A DNA stretch of 64,000 nucleotides, from the NCBI GenBank assembly GCA_041650935.1, contig JBAZKH010000006.1, positions 29,505 through 93,504 on the forward strand, in the 5' to 3' direction. Source of the stretch: Candidatus Omnitrophota bacterium (GTDB lineage: Bacteria > Omnitrophota > Gorgyraeia > 2-01-FULL-45-10). The stretch's first letter is position 1, and every line of letters starts with the position of its first letter. Positions 22,714 to 61,871 of this stretch are shown here, one piece after another. Made by a program: the position numbers and the translations under genes. The notes under the pieces were generated by a model. That model ran no database searches. It saw only the letters and a list, made by a program, of their open reading frames with translations, and had not been told where the DNA came from.

Positions 22714-23591
22714 TGACTAGACCCCTGTCGCCTAATACCATTACGGAAAAGAATAAACCCGAGTCGGAAGATATTTTGAGCTTCGTAGATATCTTCCTGG
22801 AAGGCGAGACATTACATTTCGTGAATAACGCTGTAAACCTCAACTTCTTCGACCTCGATGGAAATCCCGCACTCTATCAGGGACTTAAGATGACGCGCGA
22901 GAAGAAAGAGGACTCGATGGATATGGAGATACAGACCGTGTCTGCAGGATTAGATAACGTCGATCGTGGTATGTCCAGTTACATCGCATCGAAAGATTTC
23001 AGGGATCGCCGTATCGTGATACGGGCCTGTTTTCGTAATCTCATATCGGACGGCGCTAACGCATGGAAGGTATTTGACGGGTTTATAGATAAGCCGAATA
23101 TCTCGGAACATGATTTTACGATCGAGCTTGTACCGCGCCTCGGCCGGGGGACGCTTAACTCGAAGATAGGCGTAAAACAGCAACTTCCCTGCAGGCTTCC
23201 TTTCGCAGGCGCAAAGTGCGCTTACGGCAAGGATCCGGAGGTCCTTAAAGACGAAAAGACAGCCCAGATCGTAGATTCGGGGACAACCGGCTACATTGTC
23301 GACAGCGCCCGGATCGAAGCGGACGATTACTGGAACTTCGGGTTTGTGACGTTCGCTCTCGATACATTGACCGTTGCGTTAAGGGGTATTACTCGCATGA
23401 TAAACGACTTTGTATCGGCCGAATGTAAGATTCATTTTAAGATTGCGCTTCATATCGCACCCCAGGCCGGCGATACATACAAGATAGAGCGCGGATGCGA
23501 CCTTACGCTCGATAGTTGTCAGAATAAGTTTAATAACGACGTAAATTACGGGGGCATTCATACTCTGCCGGCAACGATGGTGAGGACATGA
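22713..23591 (+). CDS. Minor tail protein L-like (with C-terminal Cys cluster)
   Basis: Four Cys in CRLPFAGAKC...GCDLTLDSC, reminiscent of the Fe-S cluster of gpL. In the correct position. Confidence 0.45.
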   Translation: MTRPLSPNTITEKNKPESEDILSFVDIFLEGETLHFVNNAVNLNFFDLDGNPALYQGLKMTREKKEDSMDMEIQTVSAGLDNVDRGMSSYIASKDFRDRRIVIRACFRNLISDGANAWKVFDGFIDKPNISEHDFTIELVPRLGRGTLNSKIGVKQQLPCRLPFAGAKCAYGKDPEVLKDEKTAQIVDSGTTGYIVDSARIEADDYWNFGFVTFALDTLTVALRGITRMINDFVSAECKIHFKIALHIAPQAGDTYKIERGCDLTLDSCQNKFNNDVNYGGIHTLPATMVRT

Positions 23592-26500: not shown

Positions 26501-26683
26501 ACCGTGATATTCGGAGTGGGGCTCAGTTTTCCGCCGAGAGTCAATACGGCGATTATTAACGGCATAAAAGGAATAGTCGTAATAAGCAATAAAACAAAGG
26601 ATCAGATGGATGTCAGGGTGTATGACCTTACGGGTTCCGCGATAGGCACCGCAGAGATCGACTGGGAGGCGAGAGGCTATTAA
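23588..26683 (+). CDS. Tail tip / host specificity protein: N-terminal NlpC/P60 (gpK-like) domain fused to a gpJ-like region with fibronectin type III domains
   Basis: N-terminal DCLNLAKLY...GDVLFF...HCGMYVG...VLH carries an NlpC/P60 Cys-His signature. FN3-like YQIELKKGSAGYKTIGFTSGSNFTIYSVEAEITYNVRIKTVS. 1031 aa. Confidence 0.6.
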   Translation: MTKLSVPQKYIGIPFKENGDSFDGADCLNLAKLYAENELGVKVTRMPADINEAQDKRTKYLSLLEEIPLSDIIPGDVLFFSFKDRWHCGMYVGYNKVLHTIRPLFSGRKSRSMISPIRDEWRRSYIGAIRTKGKTEVTVPDAGDLGVVAIVIAIIGTIYSVYTAITAPKPNFGNDLASPKYGTKYGFDAISNTISNELIYPLPFGRNKYGGNIIWNKKDGDNIHMFLLLGIGKINSISDVRVNDIPIEELPGCSYTAYLGTPDQVVDPRAGGEVKGLRNIAYLAVTLVPSEKLPGGDPTVTCIYEGFLMKTWTGSIWTGENYSRNPAACLRKLLIIPREDGGAGVSESELDDASFGECYDRCKILLDDGDEGLSERHLFDFVFDAERPIHDAIMEILQPYGMYLVVGEKISLKMLKPDDSVYDFDMDNIKEGSFKYYYASKNDSLNDVTVKYGDPEQNDVAIDAKSVDLYDQIKTGAVRKGEYMFLGLSRFAEASRRAEFIKNETNVNIIFAEFDMDIDALHCAVGDVVTVSHDLTGWNRKPFRIIKITEESDFTRHAVLKEENSSIYNDAFGSVIASLDYGSPPNPYRPVSDVTGLVTQESAYYLHKDGTVGTDIVISWNAPADASKQFLKYYQIELKKGSAGYKTIGFTSGSNFTIYSVEAEITYNVRIKTVSINDVLSDGVVSSPLTVLGKLAAPSNVTGFEAYQEGNLLKFSWNAIPDADLARYVIKKGSEWGTGQTIAELIDTTEFMYPVGETGVVTFMIKAVDTSGNESAAPGIDTITIVPPPEMNFINTFDPWSVNHEYKLSNLELVKRSDYSPDYVRSVFALMTSVTWEDREAEAKTWEQQESDLGLILDEPVKSSGYYEMVTPLDLETIFEFKIFTDVLYKNVSGGTLAVQISISEDGVNYSSFTAINANATYRARYLKFKFTLSATDTNKNVYFYACSIFVNAPSIRVAWARDVAIPVGGKTVIFGVGLSFPPRVNTAIINGIKGIVVISNKTKDQMDVRVYDLTGSAIGTAEIDWEARGY

Positions 26684-37494: not shown

Positions 37495-38425
37495 GTTTAA
37501 GGACGGGCTCGAAAAGGAAGGCCTTCGTCAGTGCACGATCGAGAATATGGTAAGGCACGTTAATTTTTTCGCGAAATACTACAAGTCTTTCGATATGAGA
37601 AAGGTCTCGAGTAAAGATATCAAAAAATTCAAAATATACATCATGCTGGAGCATATTACCGAGAAAGGCAAAAATAAAGGCAAGAAGATATGCGTCGAAT
37701 ATGTCATATCCATACTATGTTCTTTGATGAAATACTTCAAATTTTTGGCGCAGAGAAGACATATATTTTTCGATCCGACGCTTGACTTGGAATTCCCGAA
37801 GAAGAATCCGCATTTTCCGGATTATATACCGAGCGAAAAAGATGTGCAGGAGCTGTTGCAAAAGCCGGATACGAATACTTACTGGGGGATAAGGGACAGG
37901 CTCTTATTTGAGCTTGCCTATACCTGTCCGCTACGAAACCAAGAACTTGGACGACTATGCATTCAGGATATCGATATGAAGGATAGATACATTTATCCGA
38001 AAAGAGAAAAAGGCGGGTATGAGTGCGGCATACCGATAACGGATTCTACGCATCAAATTTTGGAGAAATATCTTTCGATATCGCGCCCCCGGCTTTTGAA
38101 AGGAGCAAAAACCCCCACGATGACCGATAGATTGTTTATAACTATATACGGTGGTCCCTTCAAGAAGACTACCATAGACGATATATTCGCAAAATACCGG
38201 GGAGATAAGAGGATACATCCTCACTTGATGAGGCATGCCTGCGCCGTCCATATGCTGAAAGGCGGGGCAAGGATAAGGGATATTCAGGTTCTGTTGGGCC
38301 ACAGGCGACTGACCTCGACCAATCGCTATACTCGCCTGACAGCCAACGATATTAAAGACATACAAGATAAATATCATCCAAGGGAGAGGAGTGCTAGACG
38401 TGCTGCCGCTGTTGGACGAATTTAA
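37475..38425 (+). CDS. Tyrosine recombinase, trio member 2
   Basis: HPHLMRHACAVHMLKGGARIRDIQVLLGHRRLTSTNRYTRL. Overlaps member 1 by 20 nt. Confidence 0.85.
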   Translation: MLPLLNEFKDGLEKEGLRQCTIENMVRHVNFFAKYYKSFDMRKVSSKDIKKFKIYIMLEHITEKGKNKGKKICVEYVISILCSLMKYFKFLAQRRHIFFDPTLDLEFPKKNPHFPDYIPSEKDVQELLQKPDTNTYWGIRDRLLFELAYTCPLRNQELGRLCIQDIDMKDRYIYPKREKGGYECGIPITDSTHQILEKYLSISRPRLLKGAKTPTMTDRLFITIYGGPFKKTTIDDIFAKYRGDKRIHPHLMRHACAVHMLKGGARIRDIQVLLGHRRLTSTNRYTRLTANDIKDIQDKYHPRERSARRAAAVGRI

Positions 38426-40247
38426 GCAGAAGTTATTAAAGGAACACAAGCTTATAACTATGACCAACACGATAAGTATATGCTTTATGCTGGAAGACTG
38501 GTATGGGTCAGACCGCATGGAGAAGATAACATGCGAAGACCTTGATCGATTCAAAAAATATCTTATGACAGAATACATTACGCGTACTGGCGGGCATTAT
38601 CATCTTTCAACCATCGTAGCGAGGTTCGAAGGGCTAAAGAAATATTTTGCGTTTTTGATGGAGAAGAAATATATATCGAAGGACCCCATGTGCGGTCTTG
38701 AGTTCCCGAAGACAAAACCGCAACTGCCACCGTGGCTGCCTACAGAGAAAGAAGTCCGTGAGCTTATAAATAAAGTCGACGCAAGCTCGCCTCAGGGCTC
38801 GTCCGATAAGGCGGTAATCGCACTAATGTCGATCATGCCGTTAAAGAATAAGGAAGTGGGGCCACTTACGGTAGACCAGGTGGACATAGAGAATAGATGC
38901 GTATATCCTATAAAAGGATCGAAAGAGCTCGCGATACCGATGCCCGATCCTATCTTTGAAATACTGAATAAGTATATTACGAAGGATCGTTATCATATAG
39001 TCAAGTGGCTTAAAGCCCCGACAGACTTACTTTTCGTAAGCAGGCTCGGGACGGCGTTCTTTGAGTCAACGCTGAATAATATATTCTCTAGATATAACAG
39101 ATATGCTCCGCGCGAGAAGCGCATATATCCGTATCTTATGCGGCCGGCTACGGCCAACCATATGCGAAAAAGGGGAATGAAACTCGAGGACATCCATAAG
39201 ATCTTGGGCGTAAAATACAGAACCGTCGGTACCTATACAACTCTTGCCAGAAATGAAATAAGGGCGGAAGAGGAAAGATACGTGGCAAAGATACCTTTGT
39301 TCAAGGAGTTTAAAGAGAAACTCGTAAAAGACGAGTTATCCCCGAACATGATTCACAACGCTTTGAAGGCGATCATATTCTTTGCCAAGTATTTAAAGAG
39401 CGATGATATGAAAAAGATCACCCCTGCCGATATCGGAAGGTGCAAAAATTATGTTTTAAACGAGTATATTACCATCGAGAATAGAAAATTAACCGAACAA
39501 GAGGTGGCTTTGAGGTTGCGTGCTTTAAAGACATATTTCAATTTTCTTGCGGAGAGCAGGTATCTTTCGTCAGATCCGGCTGTAGATATAAAGATTCCGG
39601 ACGTCCCTCCTCGCATAAATTGGTATCGGCCGACAGATGAAGCTATAGAAGAGTTCGCATCTAGACCTGATCCGTATACATACGTAGGCATGCGAGATGC
39701 TGTGATAATACGATTGTGGCACCTTACCGCGTTAAAACCCAATGAGCATATGGATCTAAAAGTGCAAGATATAGATTTGAATAAGAAAGTGCTTTATGTG
39801 CCAGGGCCAAGACGTCGCACCTTGAAATTGGATGATAAAACATATAAGGCCGTCGAGCGATATCTTACCAAATCCAGGCCTGTATTCTTGAAGAAAGCCA
39901 AGGAGCCTACCGATAAGTTATTTATGAATGAATGGGGAGGTCCTCTTGCTCTATGTAGTATGTATGATATATTTTGGAAATATAAGGGCGACAGGAAGAT
40001 TAAACCATGCATTTCAAGGCATGCGAGGGCTCTCAAAATGTTTCGTGACGGCTCCAGCGCCGAAGAAGTTAAAAAGGCCTTAGGTTTTAGATCTATTAGA
40101 TCGTGCCAAGCTTATAAAGCGATGGTTGCGAAGGATGTAACTGGTTTCTATAAGAAGGATCGCTTTGAGGAGAAGGTCAGGCTTATTAGACGAGAAAAAC
40201 CCGCTTACCATTCAGATAATTCCAATCTTGTAACACTTCCCAAGTAG
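38391..40247 (+). CDS. Tandem double tyrosine-recombinase-fold protein, trio member 3
   Basis: Two successive recombinase modules: YPYLMRPATANHM...ILGV...GTY and ISRHARALKMF...ALGF...CQAY. Both lack the second conserved His. 618 aa. Overlaps member 2 by 35 nt. Confidence 0.65.
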   Translation: MLDVLPLLDEFKQKLLKEHKLITMTNTISICFMLEDWYGSDRMEKITCEDLDRFKKYLMTEYITRTGGHYHLSTIVARFEGLKKYFAFLMEKKYISKDPMCGLEFPKTKPQLPPWLPTEKEVRELINKVDASSPQGSSDKAVIALMSIMPLKNKEVGPLTVDQVDIENRCVYPIKGSKELAIPMPDPIFEILNKYITKDRYHIVKWLKAPTDLLFVSRLGTAFFESTLNNIFSRYNRYAPREKRIYPYLMRPATANHMRKRGMKLEDIHKILGVKYRTVGTYTTLARNEIRAEEERYVAKIPLFKEFKEKLVKDELSPNMIHNALKAIIFFAKYLKSDDMKKITPADIGRCKNYVLNEYITIENRKLTEQEVALRLRALKTYFNFLAESRYLSSDPAVDIKIPDVPPRINWYRPTDEAIEEFASRPDPYTYVGMRDAVIIRLWHLTALKPNEHMDLKVQDIDLNKKVLYVPGPRRRTLKLDDKTYKAVERYLTKSRPVFLKKAKEPTDKLFMNEWGGPLALCSMYDIFWKYKGDRKIKPCISRHARALKMFRDGSSAEEVKKALGFRSIRSCQAYKAMVAKDVTGFYKKDRFEEKVRLIRREKPAYHSDNSNLVTLPK

Positions 40248-49245: not shown

Positions 49246-52200
49246 TTGACAATTGCTAAAAAAAGCGTATACTTTTTTACAATAAATATGACGCGTAATT
49301 CCCTGATCAAAAACTTCGCGCTTGCATTTTTATTTACCACCCTTATAATTTATGCCAATCCGGCATATGCCGCCAATCGTTCCCCCGCAGTAGGTGTAAT
49401 TACTCCCGATAATGGCACGTCGGCCCCGACACAGCGTGTAACATTTACGACCAGCTATTCCGATCCCGACGGCGCAAGCGATATAAGCCTTGCGCACCTT
49501 CTTATTAATACTACAGCAACCCCGCAAAATTGTTTCGCGGCCTACTACGACAATAAGCTCAATAAGCTTTATTTTGCAAACGATAAGGGTGTTATGGTAG
49601 GAGGGTATACTCCGGGTTCGTCCAGAACGATATCGAATTCGTATTGTAAACTCGAATGCTCTAAGACGGTGGTTGCCAAAACCGCCAATACCATTACCGT
49701 AACCTGGATGGTGGTCTTTAAACGGTCGTTCTCGGGGACGATCTATGACGCCTATCTGAAGGTAAACGATAAACAGAATGCTTCCACCGGCTGGGTCAAA
49801 AAGGGTGCATGGGCTGTAAATTTCCCGCCCAAGGTTGGCACGCTTAGTCCATCAAGGGGGACTTCCGTGCCGGGTCAAGAGATAATTATCTCTTCCAAGT
49901 ATCGGGATCGCGATAAAGGCGATAATATAAAACTTGCCTACCTGTTAATAAACACTTCGACCGAATGTCGGAATTGCCCGGCCGTATACTACGACAATAG
50001 CGCGAATAAGCTCTACATGTTGAATGATCAGGGAGACACAAGTGTCGGAGGCTTTGCCCCGGGATCTTCCAATATTATCGAAAATTCTTATTGCAAGCTT
50101 AATTGTTCCGCTACGCAAGTTACCAAGTTCAGCACCAATATGACCGTAAAATGGGACGTGACTTTTAAGCACCTTTTTGCCGGCAAGACTTACGACGTTT
50201 ATTTAAAGGCGGTCGATAAGACAGACTCTTCAACGGGCTGGGTTAAGAAGGGTGTGCGGATGGTGAAGGTTACGGATACAGTTGCGCCCGTTGGCAAGGT
50301 TGTGATAAATAGCGGAGCCGAATATACCAATACTGCAGCGACGAATCTGAAGCTATCGGCACAGGATAATTCCGGCGGGTCAGGGCTTTCTCAGATGCGG
50401 TTTTCGAACGATGACGTCAATTGGTCCTCTCCAGAAGCATATGCCACTACGAAGACGTGGATGTTGTCGTCCGGCGACGGGAATAAGACGGTCTATGTTA
50501 AGTTTTCTGACCTTGCAGGCAATTGGTCGAGTGCCTATTCCGATTCGATAAAACTCGATACCATACCGCCGCGTGTGATTATAACCAGCCCGCAGGATGG
50601 CGCTATTGTTACTGTCCCCGATCTTACCGTGAGTTATACATCCGACGGTGTTTCGAAGACAAAACAGCTTACGCTTCTGGAAGGCGATAATCTTATAACG
50701 ATAACAGAGACAGATCAGGCGGGGAATATCGGTACGGCATCGATGCATGTAAGGTTAAATACGGTCCCGCCGATACCTATAACCGACGTTAATGTTTCAC
50801 CAGGCATCATCTCGCCTAATGGAGACGGAAAAGCGGATACCGCCACTATCAACGCTACTGCCGGCATCCCTTGCGACTACACGATCACGATAAAAAACTC
50901 CTCTGGCACACCCGTAAAGACATTCCAAGGCCACAGTGCTACAGGAGCTATCTCCCGTGTCTGGGACGGTAAGAACGGATCGGGCGCCACTCAACCCGAA
51001 GGCACATATACCTACTATATAGACGTCACCGACGGGGTAAGCACAGCCCACACTGTTCCGCAAGCCATATATATCGATATTACTTCCCCTCAGGCAAGTG
51101 TCGTAGCTCCGTTAGCGGGCAATATCTCAGGAACTGTTCCTATAAAGGTCCTCGCAAATGACAGCCGGTGGAGGCAGGGTGATTGGAGCGCCGCCACATT
51201 ATACTACGGTCAGGGTTCAAGCCCTTCGCAGTGGATCATGCTAAATCGTTCTTATCTTCCGCTTGTTCTGGATAACGAAGGCCAGGCACCCGTGTTGTAC
51301 AGTTGGGATACCACAACTCTCGCAAACGGCGACTATGTTATAAAGTGGGTGGTTGTCGATGCTGCCGATAACGTTACGACTGTCAATGTGCCTGTAACAG
51401 TAACCAACGCCGGCCCTGACATAGCCAACCTCACCGTCGCCCCGAACCCGTTCTCGCCCGACGGAAGCGGGACGTGGATAGACCTTACGACCGGTGAGGT
51501 CTTCCAGGATCCAGGCCCGAACCGCGTCCTGGATGACATTGCGGCTATATCGTTCAATGTCTCAACCCACAGCTTCTTCAACATACGCGTGCTCGATTCT
51601 TCGGATAATCTAGTCAAACAACTTGTTTATAGCGCTCTCTATCCCGACTCCGCAACCCATAAGATCGAATTACAATGGGATGGCCGTAACGATAGCGGCG
51701 CATTAGTGCCTAATGGCCAGTACAAACTTGTTGTGAACGGGGGAAGTGTCCAGAAGGAAAAGTCTATCAACATAACTGTCGACAAAATGCCGTTTATCAC
51801 CGTTGCCAATATAGCCCCGAATCCTTTTTCACCAGATGGCGATGGTACCGACGAAGTTACCGCCATCTCTTACAATATTTCCGAAATATCGTATGTTACA
51901 GTCGAAATTTATAATCAGCAAAATTCTTTGGTTCGTACCCTGGTCAATCGTGAGCTGTTCCCGGCTGGAGATCATCTTCATATCTGGGATGGTAAAGACG
52001 CCCAGGGCGCAGCTATTCCAGAGGGTAGATATACAATAAAGATTAGCGCCCAGGCTCAAACCGGAAACGATGCTGAACCTGTCTATCTGAACGTAGGCGT
52101 CCTCTTCATTTCCAACATACATATCTCGACAGATAGTATAAATCCTTACGTGGGCGATACGGTCAGCATAATTTATCAGATGGCAAAGAGCAGTGTCCTC

Positions 52201-53034
52201 ACCATAAAGGTTTACGATCCGTCAAATTCCCCGGTGCGGACTCTTATATCGAACCAGAGCCGGCAGGCAGGGGCTCATTCCGAAGTTTGGAACGGCAGAG
52301 ATAACGCAAATCAGATCGTGAATGATGGACCGTACTACTTCGTGATTGAAGATAGCGCAAGCGGCCTGCCTCAGGTAATTTACGACCCGCGCGGGACAGG
52401 AGGAAAGGATATTTCGAAAAGCATAAATTTTGCTGCCTCTAATTTTAATCCGCTGCTCAACCAGTTTTGTATTATGAATTATAATCTGCCCCAGGCCGCC
52501 AGGATCAATATCAAAGTCCGCAGTGAGAGGTTCAGCGGCCCTGCCATCAAGGTGATAAGGTACGAGGAGCCGACCGCGCACGGTATCCATCAGGCTACCT
52601 GGGACGGCAGGGATGAATCCGGCAACTTTGTCGATATGAGATCATTCACATTCGGCCTTTGGGGGTATACACTCGATGAGAATTCTGTCATAGTCTGCGG
52701 CGGCAGGCCCGTCATAAGCGATCTAAACGTAAGCCCGGTACGGTTCAGCCCATATGTCAATCCTTATAGCACGAATGCTTCCCAGGCAACCGTATCGTTT
52801 AATCTCTCGAAGCTTGCGGACGTCACGATAAATATTTATAATTCCAAAGGTAATTTAGTGCGCGCGCTGGTGACTAATCAGGCAAGCGCTCAGGGCGCCA
52901 ATGCCTTTGTGTGGGACGGCAAAGATAACTCCGGGAACCTTGTCCCTAACGACTATTACAGGATAATGGTCCAGGCCGGTAAGAATGGTAACTATTCGGA
53001 AACGTGTACGGCGCATAGCGAAATATGTTATTAA
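49246..53034 (+). CDS. Giant secreted surface protein with duplicated N-terminal modules and multiple FlgD-Ig-like repeats
   Basis: Signal peptide present. Two homologous N-terminal modules, each ...SDPDGASDISLAHLLINT...YYDNKLNKLYF... Repeated NPFSPDGDG...(V/I)YN...LVRTL Ig-like units. Confidence 0.5.
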   Translation: MTIAKKSVYFFTINMTRNSLIKNFALAFLFTTLIIYANPAYAANRSPAVGVITPDNGTSAPTQRVTFTTSYSDPDGASDISLAHLLINTTATPQNCFAAYYDNKLNKLYFANDKGVMVGGYTPGSSRTISNSYCKLECSKTVVAKTANTITVTWMVVFKRSFSGTIYDAYLKVNDKQNASTGWVKKGAWAVNFPPKVGTLSPSRGTSVPGQEIIISSKYRDRDKGDNIKLAYLLINTSTECRNCPAVYYDNSANKLYMLNDQGDTSVGGFAPGSSNIIENSYCKLNCSATQVTKFSTNMTVKWDVTFKHLFAGKTYDVYLKAVDKTDSSTGWVKKGVRMVKVTDTVAPVGKVVINSGAEYTNTAATNLKLSAQDNSGGSGLSQMRFSNDDVNWSSPEAYATTKTWMLSSGDGNKTVYVKFSDLAGNWSSAYSDSIKLDTIPPRVIITSPQDGAIVTVPDLTVSYTSDGVSKTKQLTLLEGDNLITITETDQAGNIGTASMHVRLNTVPPIPITDVNVSPGIISPNGDGKADTATINATAGIPCDYTITIKNSSGTPVKTFQGHSATGAISRVWDGKNGSGATQPEGTYTYYIDVTDGVSTAHTVPQAIYIDITSPQASVVAPLAGNISGTVPIKVLANDSRWRQGDWSAATLYYGQGSSPSQWIMLNRSYLPLVLDNEGQAPVLYSWDTTTLANGDYVIKWVVVDAADNVTTVNVPVTVTNAGPDIANLTVAPNPFSPDGSGTWIDLTTGEVFQDPGPNRVLDDIAAISFNVSTHSFFNIRVLDSSDNLVKQLVYSALYPDSATHKIELQWDGRNDSGALVPNGQYKLVVNGGSVQKEKSINITVDKMPFITVANIAPNPFSPDGDGTDEVTAISYNISEISYVTVEIYNQQNSLVRTLVNRELFPAGDHLHIWDGKDAQGAAIPEGRYTIKISAQAQTGNDAEPVYLNVGVLFISNIHISTDSINPYVGDTVSIIYQMAKSSVLTIKVYDPSNSPVRTLISNQSRQAGAHSEVWNGRDNANQIVNDGPYYFVIEDSASGLPQVIYDPRGTGGKDISKSINFAASNFNPLLNQFCIMNYNLPQAARINIKVRSERFSGPAIKVIRYEEPTAHGIHQATWDGRDESGNFVDMRSFTFGLWGYTLDENSVIVCGGRPVISDLNVSPVRFSPYVNPYSTNASQATVSFNLSKLADVTINIYNSKGNLVRALVTNQASAQGANAFVWDGKDNSGNLVPNDYYRIMVQAGKNGNYSETCTAHSEICY

Positions 53035-53049
53035 GACAAGAGGACGAAG

Positions 53050-53466
53050 ATGATTAAAAGAATTGTTCTGACCCTGTTTCTCGTAAGCGCGTTTACCGTT
53101 TTCGCCTCGGCGGCGGAAAAATTGCCTAAGAATGCGGTAAACGTAAAATTGGTATTTCCCGCCGCCGCTAATACCGCAATGAGGGCGCCGGCGCCCATAG
53201 CGGAACCGCAGGAGATAGCCGGGCAGGTCTTCGTCGATTTTGTGCCGCACCCGGAGGGCGTTGAGAAGGACAGATACCTTGTGGAATATTTTTTAGACGA
53301 CCAGCTTATTTATAAAACTACGGCAAGCGGAACGTTTAAATATACGCTGGATACCGCGAAATACGAAAACGGCCGGCATAAACTCATAGTAAACTTCTGG
53401 GATGATTCAGGCCCGTCGGCTATCGGTGTACGGGAAGTAGTGATAAATAATAAGTCGGGGGCGTAG
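53050..53466 (+). CDS. Small secreted protein
   Basis: Signal peptide (MIKRIVLTLFLVSAFTVFASA). Sits immediately upstream of the Rhs gene. Confidence 0.3.
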   Translation: MIKRIVLTLFLVSAFTVFASAAEKLPKNAVNVKLVFPAAANTAMRAPAPIAEPQEIAGQVFVDFVPHPEGVEKDRYLVEYFLDDQLIYKTTASGTFKYTLDTAKYENGRHKLIVNFWDDSGPSAIGVREVVINNKSGA

Positions 53467-53467
53467 A

Positions 53468-56400
53468 ATGAAAAGAGCGCGTTCAAAAATATCGGCCGGC
53501 ATTGCGCTAGTATTCTTCGCGGCCAATCTGTTTTTACCCTCCAACTCATTCGCAGAACTACCATGCTGGAACGATAGCTGGCTCGCCTCTGCTACAGGCG
53601 GGGTTGCCGGCGCTACCGGGGCTCAAAAAGGCGATTTCAACAAGAAGGGCTGCACGAAGGCCGGCGATCCGGTCGACGTCGCTAACGGCTGTTACTCCTA
53701 CCGGATCCAGGACGCTATTATCCCGTCACGCGGCCTAAATCTCGAGATAACGCGTTACTACAACTCTCTCGATATATACGAAGGCCCGTTCGGCATCGGC
53801 TGGAGCCATAACTACAACATATTCCTGCTGCCGACTTCAGACGGAAACGAGGTGTATGTCATAAGACGTAACGCCGACGGCTCCAAAGATAAATTCCTTC
53901 GAAATCCCGACGGGTCATACGCCGCGCCTGCCGGCTGTTACGACACTCTTACAAAGGACATGTCGGGCTACACCATCCGTGATAAGCATGGTTCAAGGCA
54001 GGCCTTTAGCCTGGACGGAAAACTTATGTATGTTTCCGATAGAAATTCGAACAGGATTTATTTTGAGTACGATCCGGCGACCGGAGTCTTAAAGAAAGCC
54101 GCCGATTCTCTCGGCAGGTGCTTCGAATTCACTTACAATTCGAGCCACAAAGTAACTTCGATAAAAGATCATACCGGCCGCGTAAATAGCTACGGCTATG
54201 ACGGCGCCGGCAATATGACCACACACACCGGACCTGGGACCGATGGCTATCCTGCCGGCCTTACGACGGGCTATTCCTACGATAGCCAGCACAGGATAGA
54301 ATCGATCACCGATCCTAAGGGGCAGACATATCTATCGATAGTCTACAATGACGACGGCCGGGTATGGCGTCTCACCTACGGCGCGGGCGTATATGTCTTC
54401 GCCTATCAGGCCAACCTAACCATATTAACCGACCCAAGGGGCAATGTCGTAGAATATGTGCTGAACCCCGATGGCACGGTCAAGGCTAAGAAACAGAACG
54501 GCCGCCAGACAAGGTACGAATACAATGCGGCCAGGGAACGTGTGAAAGTCTTCCATCCGAGGGGTAACTGGGTCAAATATGCCTATGACGATAAGGGCAA
54601 TATCCTTGAGGTCAGGGAGAAGATGATAAACGCTCCTGACGTCGAAGACGCGGCAAACGATATTTTGACAAGATTCGCTTATGAACCGGACTTTAATTTT
54701 ATAAAGACCGTTACCGACCCGATGGGCAATGTGACATCTTATACTTATGATGGGGCAGGTAACTTAAAAAAGATCACTTACCCGCAGGTGAACGGCGCGG
54801 TGCCGATAGTCGAATTAAGTTACAATACCTACGGCCAGCTCGAAACCGTTACCGACCCTAACAGTATAGTGGCCAAATACACCTATTATCCCGACTCGTG
54901 GTATTTAAATAAGATAATATGCGATTACGGCACGGGAAGGTTTAATTACACGACCGAGTACGCATATGACCAGGCCGGCAACGTCGCTTCGATTAAAGAC
55001 CCGCAAGGTTACACGACTACCTTCCAGCATAACGCGCTTAACCAGGTTACGAGATCGATCGCGCCTGCGCCCTTTAGCTATGTTACAAAATATTTCTACG
55101 ACAAGACCGGTAACGTCGCAAGGGCGGAGCGGCAGACAAACGATAACGGAACGGCATGGCAGATCACAGTCTACAGATACAATATCGCGGACAAGCTCGA
55201 GACGGTCACCGATAACCTCGGCAACGTCACTACCTTCGGCTACGACGAAAATTATAACCGCACTTCCGCGCGTGACGCGGAATTGAAGATCACAACCTAT
55301 TTTTACGAGGAGAGAGACCTTCTCTGGAAGGTGATAGACGCCGAAGGCAATACTACAGAGTACGCATATGATGAGAACGGCAACTTAAAAGAAGTTAAAG
55401 ACCCATCAGGCAACCTTACCGTATATACCTACGACGACTTCGACCGGCTGACGAAAACCACGTATGCCGATAGTTCAGCAGAAGAGTATATTTATGATAC
55501 TAACTCGAACATTACTTATAAGACGTTGCCCGATGCAAAGATCGTCTATTATGAATACGATGCCCTCAACAGGCTTATCGGGAAAGGGTTTTCCCCGAAG
55601 TGGGTACTTCCTTCGAGTATAGTTACATACGGCTACGATACCGCTTCGCGATTAACCGATGTCGTGGCTTCGGCCGGTACGACCCATTACGGTTACGACA
55701 ACCTCAATCGCGTTACCAATATAACGTACCCGGATACAAAGCAAGTCTCCTATGAATACGACGCCAATTCTAATCGTACGAAGTTTGTCTACCCTGACGC
55801 AAGTTTTATAACGTACGAATACGACCACCTAAACAGGTTGAGCGCGATAAAAGACGCCTCATCCCAGCCGGTAGTCAGATACTCTTACGACGCCTTATCG
55901 AGACGCGCGAAGACGACCTACGCTAACAGCACCGAGATCGCTTACTCCTATGACGGCCTGAATCGTCTCGAAGAGATCGCCAGCCATAAGACCGGTGAAC
56001 CGGCCAATATTTCGCAGTATTCCTACACATACGATAAGGCAGGCAACCGTAAAACGATGACGGCTTCGGAAGGCGTCCACAGTTACACCTACGACGATAT
56101 CTACCAGTTAAAGACAGCGAGCTATCCCGGCGGATACTTTTTGCCAAGCGTGGCTTTTGACTATGACGCGGCAGGTAATCGTACTTCAAGTACTGGAGAC
56201 GCAGTAATAAGCTATGTCCCGAATAGCCTCAACCAGTACGCCTCGGTTGGCGGTGTAAACTATTCCTACGATCCTAATGGTAATCTTACAAATTCTGCCA
56301 CGAATACATACAGTTACGACTATGAGAATAGACTTACCTCAGCTACCACGCCCAGCCATACAGCAAGCTATGGTTACGATGCGTTCGGCAGGCGTATCTC

Positions 56401-57244
56401 TAAGACGGTGGATGGGGTTACCACCACTTATCTTTACGACGGTGATGACATAATTGCTGAATATGATAGTTCAGGTAACCTTGTAACTAAATACGTCTAT
56501 GGAGATAGCATAGACGAGCCAGTCTGTATGATGACCGCTGGTAGCGGAGGTTTCAACCTCCGCTACTATCACTACGACGGTCTTGGTTCAGTAACAAATC
56601 TTACAGACTCAACTGGGGCGACAGTTGAGAGTTACTCCTACGATGTCTTTGGTAAGCCCAGTACAGTTTCAGCCGTGGGTAACAGGTATATGTTTACGGG
56701 GAGAGAATATGATGCGGAGACGGGATTATATCACTATCGGGCAAGAGCTTACTCGCCAGAGCTTGGGAGGTTTTTACAAACTGACCCGATTGGATATTGG
56801 GGCGGTATAAATCTTTATACTTACTGTGATAATAATCCTGTAAGTTATATTGACCCATTGGGGTTATTCGTTTTTGGAAAGCGTCCTTTGGAAGGGAAGC
56901 CTTGGTTTGATAATGCTTCTGATAATAGAGCAGATGATTACTTGAATACGGAACTCTCTCACGAGCACGGATTCTTTGAAGATGGCTCTGGGGAAAATGT
57001 TGGATTCGGCCCAAAAGGACGTTTCTCAGAAGACCCGATGGGTAAAGGATATAGATATGGCACCGAGCATTATGATGACGAACTTATGCGGGAAGCTTTG
57101 AAAAATGTAAAAGACGGCAAGTATTCTAATTGGCCTTGGAGTAAGAACAACTGTCAAGACTGGGCAGAACGGTTGCGTAGAGAATATGAAAGACTGAAGA
57201 AAGAAAAAGAGAGAAACCAAACCAAGTGCAAAGGTAAAAAATAA
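53468..57244 (+). CDS. Rhs/YD-repeat polymorphic toxin with C-terminal variable toxin domain
   Basis: Signal peptide, many YD repeats (YEYDANSNRT, YSYDALSRR, ...). The RHS core ends YRARAYSPELGRFLQTDPIGYWGGINLYTYCDNNPVSYIDPLGL, followed by a roughly 125-aa unique C-terminal domain. Confidence 0.85.
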   Translation: MKRARSKISAGIALVFFAANLFLPSNSFAELPCWNDSWLASATGGVAGATGAQKGDFNKKGCTKAGDPVDVANGCYSYRIQDAIIPSRGLNLEITRYYNSLDIYEGPFGIGWSHNYNIFLLPTSDGNEVYVIRRNADGSKDKFLRNPDGSYAAPAGCYDTLTKDMSGYTIRDKHGSRQAFSLDGKLMYVSDRNSNRIYFEYDPATGVLKKAADSLGRCFEFTYNSSHKVTSIKDHTGRVNSYGYDGAGNMTTHTGPGTDGYPAGLTTGYSYDSQHRIESITDPKGQTYLSIVYNDDGRVWRLTYGAGVYVFAYQANLTILTDPRGNVVEYVLNPDGTVKAKKQNGRQTRYEYNAARERVKVFHPRGNWVKYAYDDKGNILEVREKMINAPDVEDAANDILTRFAYEPDFNFIKTVTDPMGNVTSYTYDGAGNLKKITYPQVNGAVPIVELSYNTYGQLETVTDPNSIVAKYTYYPDSWYLNKIICDYGTGRFNYTTEYAYDQAGNVASIKDPQGYTTTFQHNALNQVTRSIAPAPFSYVTKYFYDKTGNVARAERQTNDNGTAWQITVYRYNIADKLETVTDNLGNVTTFGYDENYNRTSARDAELKITTYFYEERDLLWKVIDAEGNTTEYAYDENGNLKEVKDPSGNLTVYTYDDFDRLTKTTYADSSAEEYIYDTNSNITYKTLPDAKIVYYEYDALNRLIGKGFSPKWVLPSSIVTYGYDTASRLTDVVASAGTTHYGYDNLNRVTNITYPDTKQVSYEYDANSNRTKFVYPDASFITYEYDHLNRLSAIKDASSQPVVRYSYDALSRRAKTTYANSTEIAYSYDGLNRLEEIASHKTGEPANISQYSYTYDKAGNRKTMTASEGVHSYTYDDIYQLKTASYPGGYFLPSVAFDYDAAGNRTSSTGDAVISYVPNSLNQYASVGGVNYSYDPNGNLTNSATNTYSYDYENRLTSATTPSHTASYGYDAFGRRISKTVDGVTTTYLYDGDDIIAEYDSSGNLVTKYVYGDSIDEPVCMMTAGSGGFNLRYYHYDGLGSVTNLTDSTGATVESYSYDVFGKPSTVSAVGNRYMFTGREYDAETGLYHYRARAYSPELGRFLQTDPIGYWGGINLYTYCDNNPVSYIDPLGLFVFGKRPLEGKPWFDNASDNRADDYLNTELSHEHGFFEDGSGENVGFGPKGRFSEDPMGKGYRYGTEHYDDELMREALKNVKDGKYSNWPWSKNNCQDWAERLRREYERLKKEKERNQTKCKGKK

Positions 57245-57323
57245 GCGGAAGAAGTAATATAGTTTACAACTTATTCTTTAAGAGATGCGGACGGGTGCGT
57301 GATAAAAAAGAGAGGATGGGAAT

Positions 57324-57932
57324 ATGGTGGTGATGGGTATCGTATTATTACTTATTTTGGTTATATTAGTCGTGATAGTTGTAAAGGCTCCATTACCTTT
57401 GTGGGGGAAAATAGGTTTTTTATTAGTTCTTGTTGTTAGTATTTTCCTTGTAAAGGCCATAAGGGGATTTTTACCTTTACCAATAGGTATACGGCACCTT
57501 GTCAACTTAACGATACAACCAAAGGATTTATATACACCCATAATAACGGACGAGTTTCTGTTTTACGAAAAAGGTTATACTAAAACATACCCTTTAATAG
57601 CCAGGCATCTTGATATTTATGAGTTAGGATTTTTAAGTTGGGAAAATATCATCCCATCAAAGTATAGATTTGATGGAAAGCTACAGGCAGATTTTTTCTG
57701 GAAAGACCAGTTGTTATTCTCCAAGGTAATAACTTCAATCAATAGTGGTGTATATGCTGAAAAAGATATGGCACACTATAAGGAGGTTTCCCTGCTAAAG
57801 TTTGACATACCATTAGAGGGGAAATATGCGAAGAACATTAGCGTTAGAATAACTGTTTTAGAGCCAGCATTAGAATTAAAAGCATACAAAGATTCTGTTA
57901 AGTTTTATGTAGCTGTGAGTTCAACTCCCTAA
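57324..57932 (+). CDS. Putative Rhs immunity protein (membrane-anchored)
   Basis: Immediately downstream of the toxin CT. N-terminal TM helix. Confidence 0.4.
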   Translation: MVVMGIVLLLILVILVVIVVKAPLPLWGKIGFLLVLVVSIFLVKAIRGFLPLPIGIRHLVNLTIQPKDLYTPIITDEFLFYEKGYTKTYPLIARHLDIYELGFLSWENIIPSKYRFDGKLQADFFWKDQLLFSKVITSINSGVYAEKDMAHYKEVSLLKFDIPLEGKYAKNISVRITVLEPALELKAYKDSVKFYVAVSSTP

Positions 57933-57948
57933 ATATAGAGGAAATAGG

Positions 57949-57973
57949 TGCCATCCCAGAAGGTGCCACCCTT
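57949..57973 (+). repeat. REP-like element copy 1 (GGTGCCATCCCAGAAGGTGCCACCC)
   Basis: Identical 25-mer at 59287-59311 and as reverse complement at 60019-60043. All three are preceded by GAAATA. Confidence 0.7.
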
Positions 57974-58095
57974 GTAGCACAGTTCTTTGACAGCCTCCTT
58001 CCTATGACGGCGATGACATAATCGCTGAATATGATGCGTCAGGTAACCTCGTAACTAAATACGTCTATGGTGATAGTATAGACGAGCCAATAAGG

Positions 58096-58923
58096 ATGGA
58101 GAAAGGAGGGCAGAGTTACTATTATCATTCGGATGGGTTGGGGTCGGTAACTAACCTTACTGACTCAACTGGAGCAACTGCTGAAAGCTATTCCTATGAT
58201 GTCTTTGGCAAACCTAGCACTACCTCTGCTATCGGTAATCGCTATATGTTTACAGGCAGGGAATACGATGCTGAGACGGGGTTATACCATTACAGAGAAC
58301 GTAGTTACTCACCACAGATAGGACGCTTCCTCCAGAGAGATCCGCTACAGATAGACGATGAGAATACATACAGCTATTGCAGTAATGACCCCATCAACTA
58401 TATAGACCCGCATGGACTTCAAATGGTTTCCATAGGCACTTCTGAAGGACCAGTCTGGACACCGCCTCCAGGGCTTGGACCAACCTGGGCACCTCCTCCA
58501 GGCATAACAATACCTCCTGGGGGCTTGCCTGGAAGCGGGATATTGTATAACACGGCGGGTGGTGCATTAGGTGCAGGTGCTTTAACAGGCGCAGCTACAG
58601 TAGGCGGTTTTGCCGTGAGCAATCCGAAAATTACTCTTCATGGAAGTCAAGATTCAGATAGCGGTGTTTCAAAGATGGGAATAGTGCAGAGGGTTAGAGA
58701 CTGGTGGAACAATTTATGGAACAAGAATAATCAGAAGAAACCACCTGGTAAAAATGTGTGGTGGGATGAAAAACGAAAAAGATGGGTAGATGACGAGTAT
58801 GTGTATACATGGGATAAAAAACCTCATAAAAAAAGAGGTGGAGGGTCGCATTGGGACAGAGGACCTTTAAAAGGCGGAAAGGGAGAATGGTCTCCAGACG
58901 GCGCAAGCTGGTATCCAAAATAG
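58096..58923 (+). CDS. Orphan rhs C-terminal cassette (RHS core fragment + alternative toxin domain)
   Basis: Nucleotide and protein homology to the 3' core of the main rhs gene begins at about 57997 (YDGDDIIAEYD...), with no start codon there. Contains DPINYIDPHGL followed by a distinct Pro/Gly-rich CT. Confidence 0.6.
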   Translation: MEKGGQSYYYHSDGLGSVTNLTDSTGATAESYSYDVFGKPSTTSAIGNRYMFTGREYDAETGLYHYRERSYSPQIGRFLQRDPLQIDDENTYSYCSNDPINYIDPHGLQMVSIGTSEGPVWTPPPGLGPTWAPPPGITIPPGGLPGSGILYNTAGGALGAGALTGAATVGGFAVSNPKITLHGSQDSDSGVSKMGIVQRVRDWWNNLWNKNNQKKPPGKNVWWDEKRKRWVDDEYVYTWDKKPHKKRGGGSHWDRGPLKGGKGEWSPDGASWYPK

Positions 58924-58935
58924 GGGTGAAGTGTT

Positions 58936-59274
58936 ATGTCTGATATTAAATGTTCCTGTGGAAGCAAAGATGTCTTTGCTTATGAATTGGTTAAATGTAA
59001 AAAATGCGGCAAAGTCATAAAAGATTTTTCAGAAGGACTGAAAAAGGGGTGGAAACTAAAAATAACTTATAATGAAGATAAATCTGGCGAAATATGGATA
59101 CGAGGCAACAAAAGCGGCTTGGAATTCTTGGCAAGCTGTTGCCTTGCCATAATAGGAAAAAATGACCCATCCGGACATATTCATCTTCAATGGCAAATGA
59201 ATAATTTGTTGCCAGGTTCAACAGAAACGCTTTTAGAATATTCTGATTACGCAGAGAATTATCAAGAGAAATAG
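58936..59274 (+). CDS. Putative immunity protein for the orphan toxin (zinc-ribbon)
   Basis: CSCGS...CKKCGK motif. Immediately downstream of the orphan CT. Confidence 0.4.
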   Translation: MSDIKCSCGSKDVFAYELVKCKKCGKVIKDFSEGLKKGWKLKITYNEDKSGEIWIRGNKSGLEFLASCCLAIIGKNDPSGHIHLQWQMNNLLPGSTETLLEYSDYAENYQEK

Positions 59275-59286
59275 GTAGTGGAAATA

Positions 59287-59311
59287 GGTGCCATCCCAGA
59301 AGGTGCCACCC
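59287..59311 (+). repeat. REP-like element copy 2
   Basis: Identical to copy 1. Located 120 nt upstream of the RAYT gene. Confidence 0.7.
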
Positions 59312-59431: not shown

Positions 59432-60019
59432 ATGGGTAGACCTAATAGGATCCTGGTAGATGGTGGAGTGTATCATATAATAAATCGGGGGCATAATAGA
59501 TATAAAGTTTTCAATTCGTTGGATGATTATAAGGCATATAAAGACATAATACGAAGATATAAGGAGGATTTTAAGTTCGATCTTTTTCATTATTGTCTCA
59601 TGCCCAACCACATACACCTGCTACTGAGAATATCTAGAGGTATTGAGCTTCCGCGTCTTATGCAAGCTATGACACAGGCATATGCAAAGCATTATAAGAA
59701 GCAATATAAGTTTATCGGTAACCTCTTCCAGGGCAGGTATAAGAGCCCATACATAGATAAAGACGAGTATCTATTAGAATGCGGCAGATATATTGAAAGA
59801 AATCCGCTGAGGGCTCATATGGTTAGCGACCTTTCGCAGTATAATTTTTCAAGTTATAATTTCTACGCTGGAGGCAAAAAAGATGATATAATTACTGAAA
59901 ATCCACTTTATAAAGCACTATCATCCGATCCTTCAATGCAGAAGCGACTATACAGAGAGTACCTATTGCAAGAAAGGCCATACGAAAATATTATAGATAA
60001 AGAATTCAAGATATCCTAG
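59432..60019 (+). CDS. REP-associated tyrosine transposase (RAYT, IS200/Y1 HUH family)
   Basis: HUH motif in YCLMPNHIHLLL. Catalytic Tyr context GNLFQGRYKSPYIDKD. About 195 aa. Flanked by inverted REP copies. Confidence 0.75.
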   Translation: MGRPNRILVDGGVYHIINRGHNRYKVFNSLDDYKAYKDIIRRYKEDFKFDLFHYCLMPNHIHLLLRISRGIELPRLMQAMTQAYAKHYKKQYKFIGNLFQGRYKSPYIDKDEYLLECGRYIERNPLRAHMVSDLSQYNFSSYNFYAGGKKDDIITENPLYKALSSDPSMQKRLYREYLLQERPYENIIDKEFKIS

Positions 60020-60043
60020 GGTGGCACCTTCTGGGATGGCACC
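60019..60043 (-). repeat. REP-like element copy 3 (inverted), overlapping the RAYT stop codon
   Basis: GGGTGGCACCTTCTGGGATGGCACC is the reverse complement of copies 1 and 2. Confidence 0.7.
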
Positions 60044-60457: not shown

Positions 60458-60498
60458 CAGGTACCTTAACCCAAGTGCGAAGAAAGGGGCTATTCATA

Positions 60499-60882
60499 AT
60501 GCGCGAGAATAAGAGGAATGCTGTAATCCTGGTAGTCGATGACGAGAGGGAGGCGACGATGAGCTTAAGGGGTTTCTTTGCGGCCCTGGGCTATGATATG
60601 CTTACGGCCTTTGACGGCAAGGAGGCCCTGGAGATCATAGACTCGGGCAGGAGGATCGATCTTATCCTCCTCGATATCAGGATGCCCGGTATCGACGGTA
60701 TCCAGATATTAGAACACCTCCGGCAGACCGATTCCGGGACAAAGGTTATAGTGATCACCGCATATGATAAAGATGTGAAGGACGAGGTCGAGGGGCTCGG
60801 CGTAGACGGTTTCTTAACCAAGCCGATAGACTTGTCCAAACTGATCGACAATGTCCGCCGCGTGATCGATAGAAAGGAATAA
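60499..60882 (+). CDS. Response regulator, receiver domain only
   Basis: AVILVVDDERE...LILLDIRMPGIDG...KVIVITAYD. Probable ATG at 60499 with an AAAGGGG RBS. The listed ORF starts at 60475. Confidence 0.7.
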   Translation: MRENKRNAVILVVDDEREATMSLRGFFAALGYDMLTAFDGKEALEIIDSGRRIDLILLDIRMPGIDGIQILEHLRQTDSGTKVIVITAYDKDVKDEVEGLGVDGFLTKPIDLSKLIDNVRRVIDRKE

Positions 60883-61322: not shown

Positions 61323-61342
61323 TCATTACGGAGGTGGGGAAG

Positions 61343-61615
61343 ATGACAAAAAGCGTGACGCTGAAGACACTGCGGCCCAGATTACCGCAAATCATCGATG
61401 AAATCGATTCGAAGATGGACAGGTTCATCGTGACCAGGCGAGGCAAACCCGTGGCCATGATAATGTCAGTCGATGATTACGAGAGCATCCTGGAGACTAT
61501 AGATATTCTTTCCGATAAGAAGCTCGTGAAGAAGATAAAGAAAGCGGAATCGGATATCCGTAAGGGCAGTGTAAAGGCGCTTGGTGAAGTTGAAGAGGAA
61601 TTAGGGCTTGTATAA
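61343..61615 (+). CDS. Phd/YefM-family antitoxin
   Basis: MTKSVTLKTLRPRLPQIIDEI...FIVTRRGKPVAMIMSVDDYESILETIDILSD. GGAGGTGGGG RBS. Confidence 0.8.
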   Translation: MTKSVTLKTLRPRLPQIIDEIDSKMDRFIVTRRGKPVAMIMSVDDYESILETIDILSDKKLVKKIKKAESDIRKGSVKALGEVEEELGLV

Positions 61616-61871
61616 GATAGCCTTAGCCAGACAGGCGGAAAAAGAATATAGGGACCTTTTCCGGAGAGAGAAGGTCATCTTCGTCCGCATAAGAAAAGCA
61701 ATCCACGCCATCGCCAAAGATCCGCGCCAGGGTAAAGCTCTTAAATTCGAGCTAAAGCGGCTGTGGTCTTACCGGGTCGGTCCATACCGCATAATCTACA
61801 GCATCGAACATTCTATCCTTACGGTCTATATTATCGATATCGGCCATCGCCGCGAGATATGCAGAGTGTAA
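61608..61871 (+). CDS. RelE/ParE-family toxin
   Basis: LKRLWSYRVGPYRIIYSIEHSILTVYIIDIGHRREI. Overlaps the antitoxin gene. Confidence 0.75.
   Translation: MYKIALARQAEKEYRDLFRREKVIFVRIRKAIHAIAKDPRQGKALKFELKRLWSYRVGPYRIIYSIEHSILTVYIIDIGHRREICRV

Follow-up and report, generated by a model that had tools for sequence, protein, structure and literature searches.

A stretch of 64,000 nucleotides (nt) from contig JBAZKH010000006.1 of a Candidatus Omnitrophota bacterium was analyzed; it is called the window below, and all coordinates are positions in it. Between positions 53468 and 59274, the window holds a genuine polymorphic-toxin locus of the Rhs main/orphan type; systems of this type are known, and the host is unusual. 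The four consecutive plus-strand open reading frames (ORFs) that an original prediction had described here from the letters alone were all confirmed. The locus is probably best explained as a Sec-exported main Rhs protein that carries a C-terminal toxin domain (CT1) of the permuted NlpC/P60 kind, followed by an orphan fragment with a second toxin domain (CT2), possibly of ribonuclease (RNase) type, and as shaped by a past crossover. Each toxin domain is followed by a candidate immunity gene, Imm1 and Imm2, respectively. The features of the locus are as follows (aa, amino acids; CT2 residues are numbered as in the 275-aa ORF of the orphan):

53468..57244, plus strand: main rhs gene, 1258 aa, with signal peptide, DUF6531, RHS repeats, core, DPLGL and CT1
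56435..56866, plus strand: main-core segment that is duplicated in the orphan and ends with DPLGL, from the core alignment
56867..57241, plus strand: CT1 toxin domain, 125 aa, predicted permuted NlpC/P60-like His-Cys hydrolase
57324..57932, plus strand: Imm1, 202 aa, with two N-terminal hydrophobic helices, candidate immunity protein for CT1
57991..58923, plus strand: orphan rhs fragment without a start codon at its 5' edge, core fragment at 58003-58419, then CT2
58003..58092, plus strand: high-identity 5' edge of the orphan core by codon identity, putative recombination footprint
58420..58731, plus strand: orphan linker, Pro/Gly-rich and glycine-zipper-like, unconserved among the CT2 family
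58732..58920, plus strand: CT2 toxin domain, 63 aa, all-beta in the model, with invariant D232, H252, D254 and K275
58936..59274, plus strand: Imm2, 112 aa, zinc ribbon and Imm32 domain, candidate immunity protein for CT2

Domain searches agree with the earlier description of the main gene as a full Rhs protein whose core ends in DPLGL and continues into a C-terminal domain of its own. Pfam places DUF6531 at aa 66-141 and finds the RHS repeats (PF05593) in 13 stretches with E = 1.7e-81, and TIGR01643 matches with E = 1.9e-52. The model of the Rhs-associated core, TIGR03696, scores 93.9 bits in the main gene and 88.3 bits in the orphan against a cut-off of 32.5. The DPLGL motif of the main core is encoded by nt 56852-56866 and the 125 residues of CT1 come after it. 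Judged by eye, the protein starts with a Sec-type signal peptide at aa 1-29 (MKRARSKISAGIALVFFAANLFLPSNSFA/ELP); no PAAR domain was found by Pfam at this N-terminus, which has the Sec-type signal and DUF6531 instead. If the solved Rhs and Tc proteins are a guide, the YD-repeat shell would enclose the C-terminal toxin, and the toxin would be released by autoproteolysis after DPLGL.

Homologues of CT1 were retrieved from a collection of 5.8 billion proteins, which yielded 37 sequences; in those that keep upstream sequence the domain directly follows the DPxGL end of an Rhs core. An alignment of 36 sequences has N27, H32, F36, D39, N44, G46, D71, A77, C96, Q97, R104 and Y107 invariant, with C96 sitting in an NNCQDW motif (H32 and C96 are His1165 and Cys1229 of the main Rhs protein). 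In the AlphaFold (AF2) model of CT1 (pLDDT 83, pTM 0.75), H32 lies on beta-strand 31-36 and C96 begins the C-terminal helix 96-122, in its first turn. Because the His on a strand precedes the Cys at a helix N-terminus, CT1 has the layout of a circularly permuted papain/NlpC-P60 domain. Similarity to solved permuted NlpC/P60 members was found in the structural comparison, with values of 5.8 for YiiX (2if6), 5.6 for Aichivirus 2A (7zv6), 5.3 for PPPDE2 (2wp7), 5.2 for TseH (6v98; effector of a type VI secretion system, T6SS), 4.9 for PLAAT4 (7zot) and 4.7 for CLN5 (6r99). At the level of the modelled fold, CT1 is thus predicted to be a permuted NlpC/P60 His-Cys hydrolase of the LRAT/PPPDE/TseH-like kind. 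The suggestion that CT1 may be a new toxin fold has to be given up in favour of this superfamily.

The relationship is faint at the level of sequence. Direct scans of Pfam (E <= 10), NCBIfam and PADLOC with CT1, CT2 and Imm1 gave no match, and the CT1 of the window itself has no match to the Pfam families LRAT and Peptidase_C97 at E <= 10. Across the CT1 family, matches over the segment with the NC motif were obtained for LRAT in 10/36 and for Peptidase_C97 in 7/36 members, all of them sub-threshold; the top scores are 20.2 bits against a cut-off of 24.3 for LRAT (PF04970) and 25.5 against 29.2 for Peptidase_C97 (PF05903). CT1 differs from LRAT/PLAAT and PPPDE (Peptidase_C97/DeSI) proteins in that every score stays below the Pfam gathering cut-offs. 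A search of the PDB sequences with the family profiles of CT1, CT2, Imm1 and Imm2 returned the Rhs core part or noise only.

The closest known parallels to CT1 are the T6SS effectors Tox-Act1 of Salmonella and TseH of Vibrio cholerae (6v98), which are permuted NlpC/P60 toxins with phospholipase activity (PMC12994826). CT1 shares with them the permuted papain-like core with His before Cys and the antibacterial context. It differs in being much smaller (125 aa), in sitting on an Rhs shell and in that its activity is a prediction, and the CT1 profile has no match to 6v98, so that no sequence similarity to TseH is detectable. In the proposed mechanism CT1 would attack the envelope of the target cell, most likely at acyl-ester bonds of membrane phospholipids as Tox-Act1 and TseH do; its target is probably a membrane lipid and less probably peptidoglycan.

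The gene behind CT1 had been put forward as a membrane-anchored candidate immunity gene, which is supported by the hydropathy of Imm1, with two strongly hydrophobic segments at the N-terminus, and by paired homologues elsewhere. Imm1 homologues with 48-49% identity lie directly 3' of CT1 homologues in the loci L003, L005 and L006. The immunity protein of Tox-Act1 is membrane-associated as well (PMC12994826), a likeness that extends the parallel to Imm1. Anchored in the membrane of the producer cell, Imm1 would neutralise CT1 there. In L003 and L005 the CT1-Imm1 pair occupies the orphan position behind other Rhs genes, and for this reason the pair is taken to move as a cassette.

A different activity of CT1 has to be weighed at this point. 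The domain may be a peptidoglycan amidase or endopeptidase, or an isopeptidase of the PPPDE/DeSI kind, and not lipid-targeting; the lowest single Pfam E-value in the family belongs to Peptidase_C97 (1.3e-5), and an endopeptidase was the first proposal for TseH. This reading deserves serious attention and is nevertheless unlikely. The permuted NlpC/P60 members LRAT/PLAAT, the YiiX-like proteins, Tox-Act1 and TseH (the last on liposomes) cleave acyl esters (PMC12994826), LRAT matches outnumber those of C97 in the family (10 versus 7), and the immunity protein is embedded in the membrane, all of which argue for the lipid-directed hydrolase.

Behind Imm1 the core begins a second time. This orphan copy had been described as the last about 100 nt of the core, beginning without a start codon, leading into a different tip and followed by an immunity gene of its own. 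The missing start codon at the edge, the different tip and the immunity gene were all found, whereas the length had to be corrected: the duplicated core covers ~417 nt (139 codons) with 75% aa and 69% nt identity. The orphan frame has a TGA at 57988-90, is open from 57991 and shows core homology in frame from 58003; the first in-frame ATG follows at 58096, DPHGL at 58405-58419 and the stop at 58921-23. The fragment has the make-up of an rhs orphan module, namely a 5'-truncated core without start codon or secretion signal, a different tip and an immunity gene, and neither CT2 nor Imm2 is related to CT1 or Imm1. Since it has neither a secretion signal nor a start codon at its 5' edge, the orphan as it stands would be undeliverable. 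It probably persists because Imm2 would guard against neighbours with full-length Rhs proteins of the CT2 type, and it may also serve as a reserve tip.

NCBI annotation starts the orphan at ATG 58096 and calls a 275-aa 'RHS repeat-associated core domain-containing protein' in the Candidatus Omnitrophota metagenome-assembled genome (MAG). The orphan might accordingly be an expressed free-standing gene which, together with Imm2, would form an intracellular toxin-antitoxin-like or addiction module in place of a silent reserve. Gene callers do report the 275-aa product, Imm2 starts 12 nt past the orphan stop with its own ribosome-binding site, and P0039, P0052, P0053, P0055 and P0056 exemplify short free-standing genes of the CT2 family with signal peptides of their own. 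Such a module is improbable here, since the product from ATG 58096 would be without a signal peptide, the sole Shine-Dalgarno-like motif directly abuts the ATG, no promoter-like site was seen upstream, and in-frame core homology extends 105 nt 5' of the ATG, as is typical of a 5'-truncated gene.

Some observations weigh against the reading of the locus as a Sec-exported main toxin with a silent orphan. Its delivery is represented by the Sec signal only. In a scan of the 10 other large ORFs of the window, no T6SS, PAAR or VgrG component was seen, and the main Rhs protein has neither the PAAR/VgrG-binding domain nor the nearby T6SS genes by which a T6SS-delivered Rhs effector would be recognized. 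The in-frame ATG at 58096 leaves room for some expression of the orphan. Finally, the soluble domain of Imm1 may be periplasmic or cytoplasmic, as two hydrophobic helices fit either placement.

Comparison of the two cores gives insight into the history of the locus. Over the aligned codons, the proportion of synonymous differences between orphan and main core is saturated (pS = 0.855) at a nonsynonymous proportion (pN) of 0.165, and the orphan core has thus evolved under purifying selection. Given the saturation of its synonymous sites, the orphan core is no recent duplicate of the main core; it comes from the 3' end of a different rhs gene that diverged long ago. The divergence is unevenly distributed: the first 96 nt of DNA are 86% identical and the rest 71% or less, and at conserved residues the codons are identical in 22/28 cases within the first 30 codons (58003-58092) versus 25/78 in the other 109 codons (Fisher p = 4e-5). 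This 90-nt edge of high identity probably marks a past homologous crossover within the core by which the cassettes were joined or displaced. GC content is ~0.50 in the core versus 0.34-0.39 over CT1/Imm1 and Imm2, a drop that is typical of exchanged cassettes.

The locus had been called a textbook substrate for recombinational toxin switching. The footprint of past recombination speaks for this; the ancient divergence of the cores, with high identity confined to the 96-nt edge, speaks against it. As the longest exact match between the core copies is 20 nt, switching of the RecA type would be inefficient today and the locus is better seen as a fossil of switching. A comparison across strains for cassette shuffling had also been proposed. 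Shuffling is visible only across distant genomes, because the genome collection holds no relative above 55% identity and thus no strain-level one. At that distance CT1-Imm1 is the orphan in L003 and L005, as noted above, and a tip of the CT2 type stands in the main position in P0045, a 795-aa Rhs protein (L009-L011) whose core end is 74% identical to that of the orphan. Both CT1-Imm1 and CT2-Imm2 recur as adjacent pairs in unrelated contigs. Other Omnitrophota Rhs proteins with 50-58% identical cores (L014, L017) carry unrelated tips.

Repeats and a transposase gene of the REP-associated tyrosine transposase (RAYT; REP, repetitive extragenic palindrome) kind bound the cassettes and had gone unmentioned in the original prediction:

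57936..57971, plus strand: repeat copy 1, 36 nt with its 24-nt core at 57947-57970, 3 nt past the Imm1 stop
59276..59311, plus strand: repeat copy 2, which doubles as left flank of the Y1 element, 2 nt past the Imm2 stop
59432..60019, plus strand: gene for a RAYT-like Y1 (IS200-like) tyrosine transposase, 195 aa, Pfam Y1_Tnp
60020..60043, minus strand: repeat copy 3, an exact 24-nt copy in inverted orientation directly at the Y1 stop

Copies 1 and 2 are direct repeats, identical in 35/36 nt. The 24-nt core occurs three times in the 64-kb window, always locally, and the copies at 59287-59310 (plus) and 60020-60043 (minus) bracket the Y1 gene. The Y1 protein matches Pfam Y1_Tnp with E = 3e-18; its best NCBIfam match is NF047646 'REP-associated tyrosine transposase' with 71.1 bits, below the equivalog threshold of 80. 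Y1 genes with 67-69% identity are bracketed in the same way, by a plus copy ~70-125 nt upstream and a minus copy at the stop, in L012, a metagenome contig without Rhs, and in L013, a Planctomycetia-labelled MAG in which the Y1 gene lies behind another Rhs toxin/immunity cassette. The repeat is therefore assigned to the Y1 element, with a solo copy after Imm1, by which the orphan cassette comes to be bracketed by direct repeats. With a repeat behind both immunity genes, the Y1 element would supply 3' homology for cassette exchange. That the 36-nt repeat is a cassette-specific recombination site, as the sole explanation, was rejected because the third, inverted copy as well as L012 and L013 tie the repeat to Y1. 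The repeat was also rejected as a hairpin (no stable fold, z about 0), and a high copy number was not found, with 3 copies in the window and a single further contig from the metagenome scan.

These repeats raise the alternative that the orphan cassette was never displaced from a main gene and was captured whole, either through the Y1 transposase or through recombination between the REP-like repeats, which would then be an attachment site. Orphan and Imm2 (57972-59275) are exactly bracketed by the nearly identical direct repeats, even though the synonymous sites of the cores are saturated, and in L012 and L013, neither of which has this orphan, the repeat belongs to the Y1 element. Among 33 Rhs-selected loci, moreover, a Y1 homologue is found in 4, and in all 4 it lies <=3 kb 3' of the core end, a zone that makes up 24.8% of the sequence (P ~0.004, post hoc). 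This sample is small, the statistic was formed after the fact, and accessory regions attract mobile elements anyway. The repeat is without a hairpin, unlike the usual Y1 substrates, it is absent from other CT1 and CT2 cassettes, and the 90-nt high-identity 5' edge favours homologous recombination in the core, which together make capture distinctly improbable. About as doubtful is the general claim that Y1 and the 24-36-nt REP-like repeats are a machinery or landing pad for the capture and shuffling of rhs-CT/immunity cassettes. If it were true, a toxin cassette array linked to a single-strand transposase and integron-like in its logic would emerge, and capture by Y1 would explain both the near-identical repeat bracket and the recurrence of Y1 just 3' of Rhs core ends in unrelated genomes.

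Y1 homologues 3' of Rhs cassettes in unrelated genomes were seen at L013 2572-3177, L027 6812-7888, L028 9819-10001, L045 2946-3377, L009 6909-7346 and L004 4395-5402. L009 also contains a palindromic 30-nt element (AGGGACTGTCCCCGAACGGGGACTGTCCCT), of a REP-like family other than that of the window, at 2219-2248, 2362-2391 and 4415-4444; its copies lie around the rhs coding region and apparently within it too.

The tip of the orphan had been characterized as Pro/Gly-rich with a basic tail. This is correct, with conservation limited to the last 63 residues: after DPHGL comes an unconserved Pro/Gly-rich linker, and the sequence closes with a basic, Trp-rich stretch. When 1.84 billion cluster representatives were searched with a profile, the CT2 domain turned up in 21 proteins, in every case at the extreme C-terminus; its carriers include full Rhs proteins (P0043, P0045, P0048, P0058) as well as non-Rhs proteins (P0051, P0054, P0059). 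The short signal-peptide-bearing proteins P0039, P0052, P0053, P0055 and P0056 (e.g. L007 990-1649) can be described as 'shell-less' mini-Rhs proteins composed of a signal peptide, the last ~40 core residues (YDPxxGRxLxxDP...DPxG) and CT2, in which the autoproteolysis motif is seemingly reused without the YD shell. Invariant in the family are D232, H252, D254, G256, S266, G269, W272 and the C-terminal K275. In the alignment (A6), 19/22 members end exactly at the invariant Lys (W-x-x-K-COOH; window 58918-58920), and the free C-terminus may therefore be functionally important.

No member of the CT2 family (0/22) matches Pfam, including its Ntox models, at E <= 1. A second homology search with the profile gave 3 matches only and no link to Ntox families. 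Judged by these searches, CT2 represents a new and very rare sequence family that is absent from Pfam. The AlphaFold model (pLDDT 82, pTM 0.66) consists of one helix and five strands. Foldseek found nothing significant for it in the PDB, and its small all-beta fold tentatively, and only weakly, resembles those of the ColE3/CdiA-CT(ECL) rRNases. The novelty that had been suspected for this toxin thus holds for the sequence family and is tempered by this weak resemblance of the modelled fold. CdiA-CT from Enterobacter cloacae (4ntq) and colicin E3's cytotoxic domain are 16S rRNases (PMC9086364). CT2 shares with them the small size (~76-96 aa), the architecture of one helix and a beta-sheet, and the placement at the C-terminus of a polymorphic toxin whose immunity protein is cytoplasmic. 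On the other hand, the D203/D205/H207/K214 motif of CdiA-CT(ECL) cannot be recognized, even though CT2 has invariant D, H, D and K residues, and the partner is an Imm32 protein and not CdiI or ImmE3.

This partner was predicted as a zinc-ribbon immunity candidate, and Imm2 indeed has an N-terminal CxC...CxxC ribbon and matches Pfam Imm32 (PF15566) over residues 53-98 with 28.6 bits (E = 1.4e-6), narrowly above the cut-off of 27. It contains no hydrophobic segment and no signal peptide. Imm32-family genes with 57-75% identity to Imm2 follow every CT2-family gene with readable context, namely in L007, in L008 and as two pairs each in L009-L011. As partners of Imm32, Zhang et al. list Ntox12 and Ntox37, which are both all-beta, and Ntox7, all of them predicted RNase-type toxins (PMC3482391). 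CT2 has the Imm32 partner in common with these families (PMC3482391), and its all-beta model with D232 and H252-W-D254 recalls Ntox12 and Ntox37, for which all-beta structures and D,D,H or Hx[DH] signatures are described; it differs from Ntox12, Ntox37 and Ntox7 by the missing Pfam Ntox match noted above. The likeliest function for CT2 is an RNase-type activity in the cytoplasm, perhaps like that of ColE3/CdiA-CT(ECL), although we would put this assignment at somewhat less than an even chance.

The composition of the tip is also reminiscent of a bacteriocin, with a Gly-rich, hydrophobic, glycine-zipper-like linker and a basic Trp-rich tail, and CT2 could then be a membrane-active or receptor-binding peptide and no nuclease. 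A weak match to LsbB (E = 0.19) was obtained with a profile of 3 sequences; it was lost with the 22-sequence profile, and a relationship to this bacteriocin was rejected as chance. The linker is unconserved and its maximum hydropathy of 1.36 is under the transmembrane level, Imm2 is soluble and without a signal peptide, which implies a cytoplasmic target, and the known Imm32 partners are predicted RNases. We therefore consider a bacteriocin-like CT2 very improbable and retain the RNase-type domain.

Two other assemblies contain the same arrangement: the ENA assembly contig L001 is 100% identical over 12.7 kb, and the Logan contig L002 (1368 nt), which covers orphan and Imm2, is 100% identical too. 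The concern that a duplication error in assembly or sequencing produced the second core copy, for which only the repeats at the cassette borders, where L002 breaks, could be adduced, is thereby refuted and has practically no probability left, as the copies are only 69% identical in nt with saturated synonymous sites, bear different C-terminal domains and immunity genes, and recur in identical structure in L001 and L002. Both ends of L002 (window 57942-59309) fall within the direct repeat copies, and its first 30 nt are also the sequence of its far end. Such an end overlap is expected when a de Bruijn graph breaks at repeats; a circular molecule of repeat, orphan and Imm2 would look alike.

Main/orphan arrays are familiar from enterobacteria, where they include rhs-main/rhs-orphan of Salmonella Typhimurium and the Rhs elements of E. 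coli with core, core extension, downstream ORF (dsORF) and the insertion sequence (IS) H-rpt. The window resembles these arrays in its YD-repeat core that ends in DPxGL, its variable toxin tip with an immunity gene directly 3', the 5'-truncated core fragment with a different tip and an immunity gene behind it, and the IS-like transposase gene at the 3' end. It differs from them in the Sec signal and in that no T6SS/PAAR/VgrG context was found, in the old homology between main and orphan core (75% aa, longest exact match 20 nt), which is not near-identical, in the RAYT-like Y1 gene with REP-like repeats in place of an ISAs1-type H-rpt, and in its host, Candidatus Omnitrophota. To our knowledge, these are ultra-small, possibly predatory or host-dependent bacteria with no cultured representatives, and we know of no T6SS-type delivery route in them for such toxins.

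Two genes for secreted proteins lie directly upstream of the main rhs gene:

49246..53034, plus strand: secreted immunoglobulin (Ig)-rich protein, 1262 aa, Pfam FlgD_ig x5 and CHU_C
53050..53466, plus strand: small secreted Ig-like protein, 138 aa, weak Big_7 match (Pfam)

The gaps are 1 nt between the 138-aa gene and rhs and 15 nt between the 138-aa and 1262-aa genes, and the Ig-rich gene is possibly co-operonic with rhs. The same order of three genes (Ig-rich, small Ig-like, rhs) was found in the Omnitrophota MAG L014 (L014 5-999), with a counterpart of the 138-aa protein, 39% identical, between the Ig-rich gene and rhs. This recurrence suggests that the three genes form a functional unit, perhaps in adhesion or delivery.

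In the wider window, a prophage-like region is found on the plus strand at 10512-40247. It includes a large terminase of the gpA type (10512-12350), a portal of the lambda family (12981-14570), a tail protein of 1031 aa that starts with an NlpC/P60 domain (23588-26683) and a tyrosine integrase of 618 aa (38391-40247). Such a prophage may merit interest of its own, given that the genome is from Omnitrophota. The accessory region past the Rhs locus contains a response-regulator gene (60475-60882) and, at 61334-61871, ~1.3 kb 3' of the Y1 element, a Phd/YefM-type antitoxin gene (93 aa) overlapping an 87-aa RelE/ParE-like ORF.

The concept of polymorphic toxins is unchanged by this locus, which documents the classical Rhs main/orphan toxin-immunity organization in Candidatus Omnitrophota. 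A possible partner for delivery or adhesion is hinted at by the two secreted Ig-domain proteins that are conserved upstream. Two candidate toxin-immunity pairs are defined, one of a compact 125-aa domain predicted to be of the permuted NlpC/P60 type with a two-helix membrane protein, and one around a rare 63-aa domain, all-beta in its model, which extends the set of Imm32 partners.

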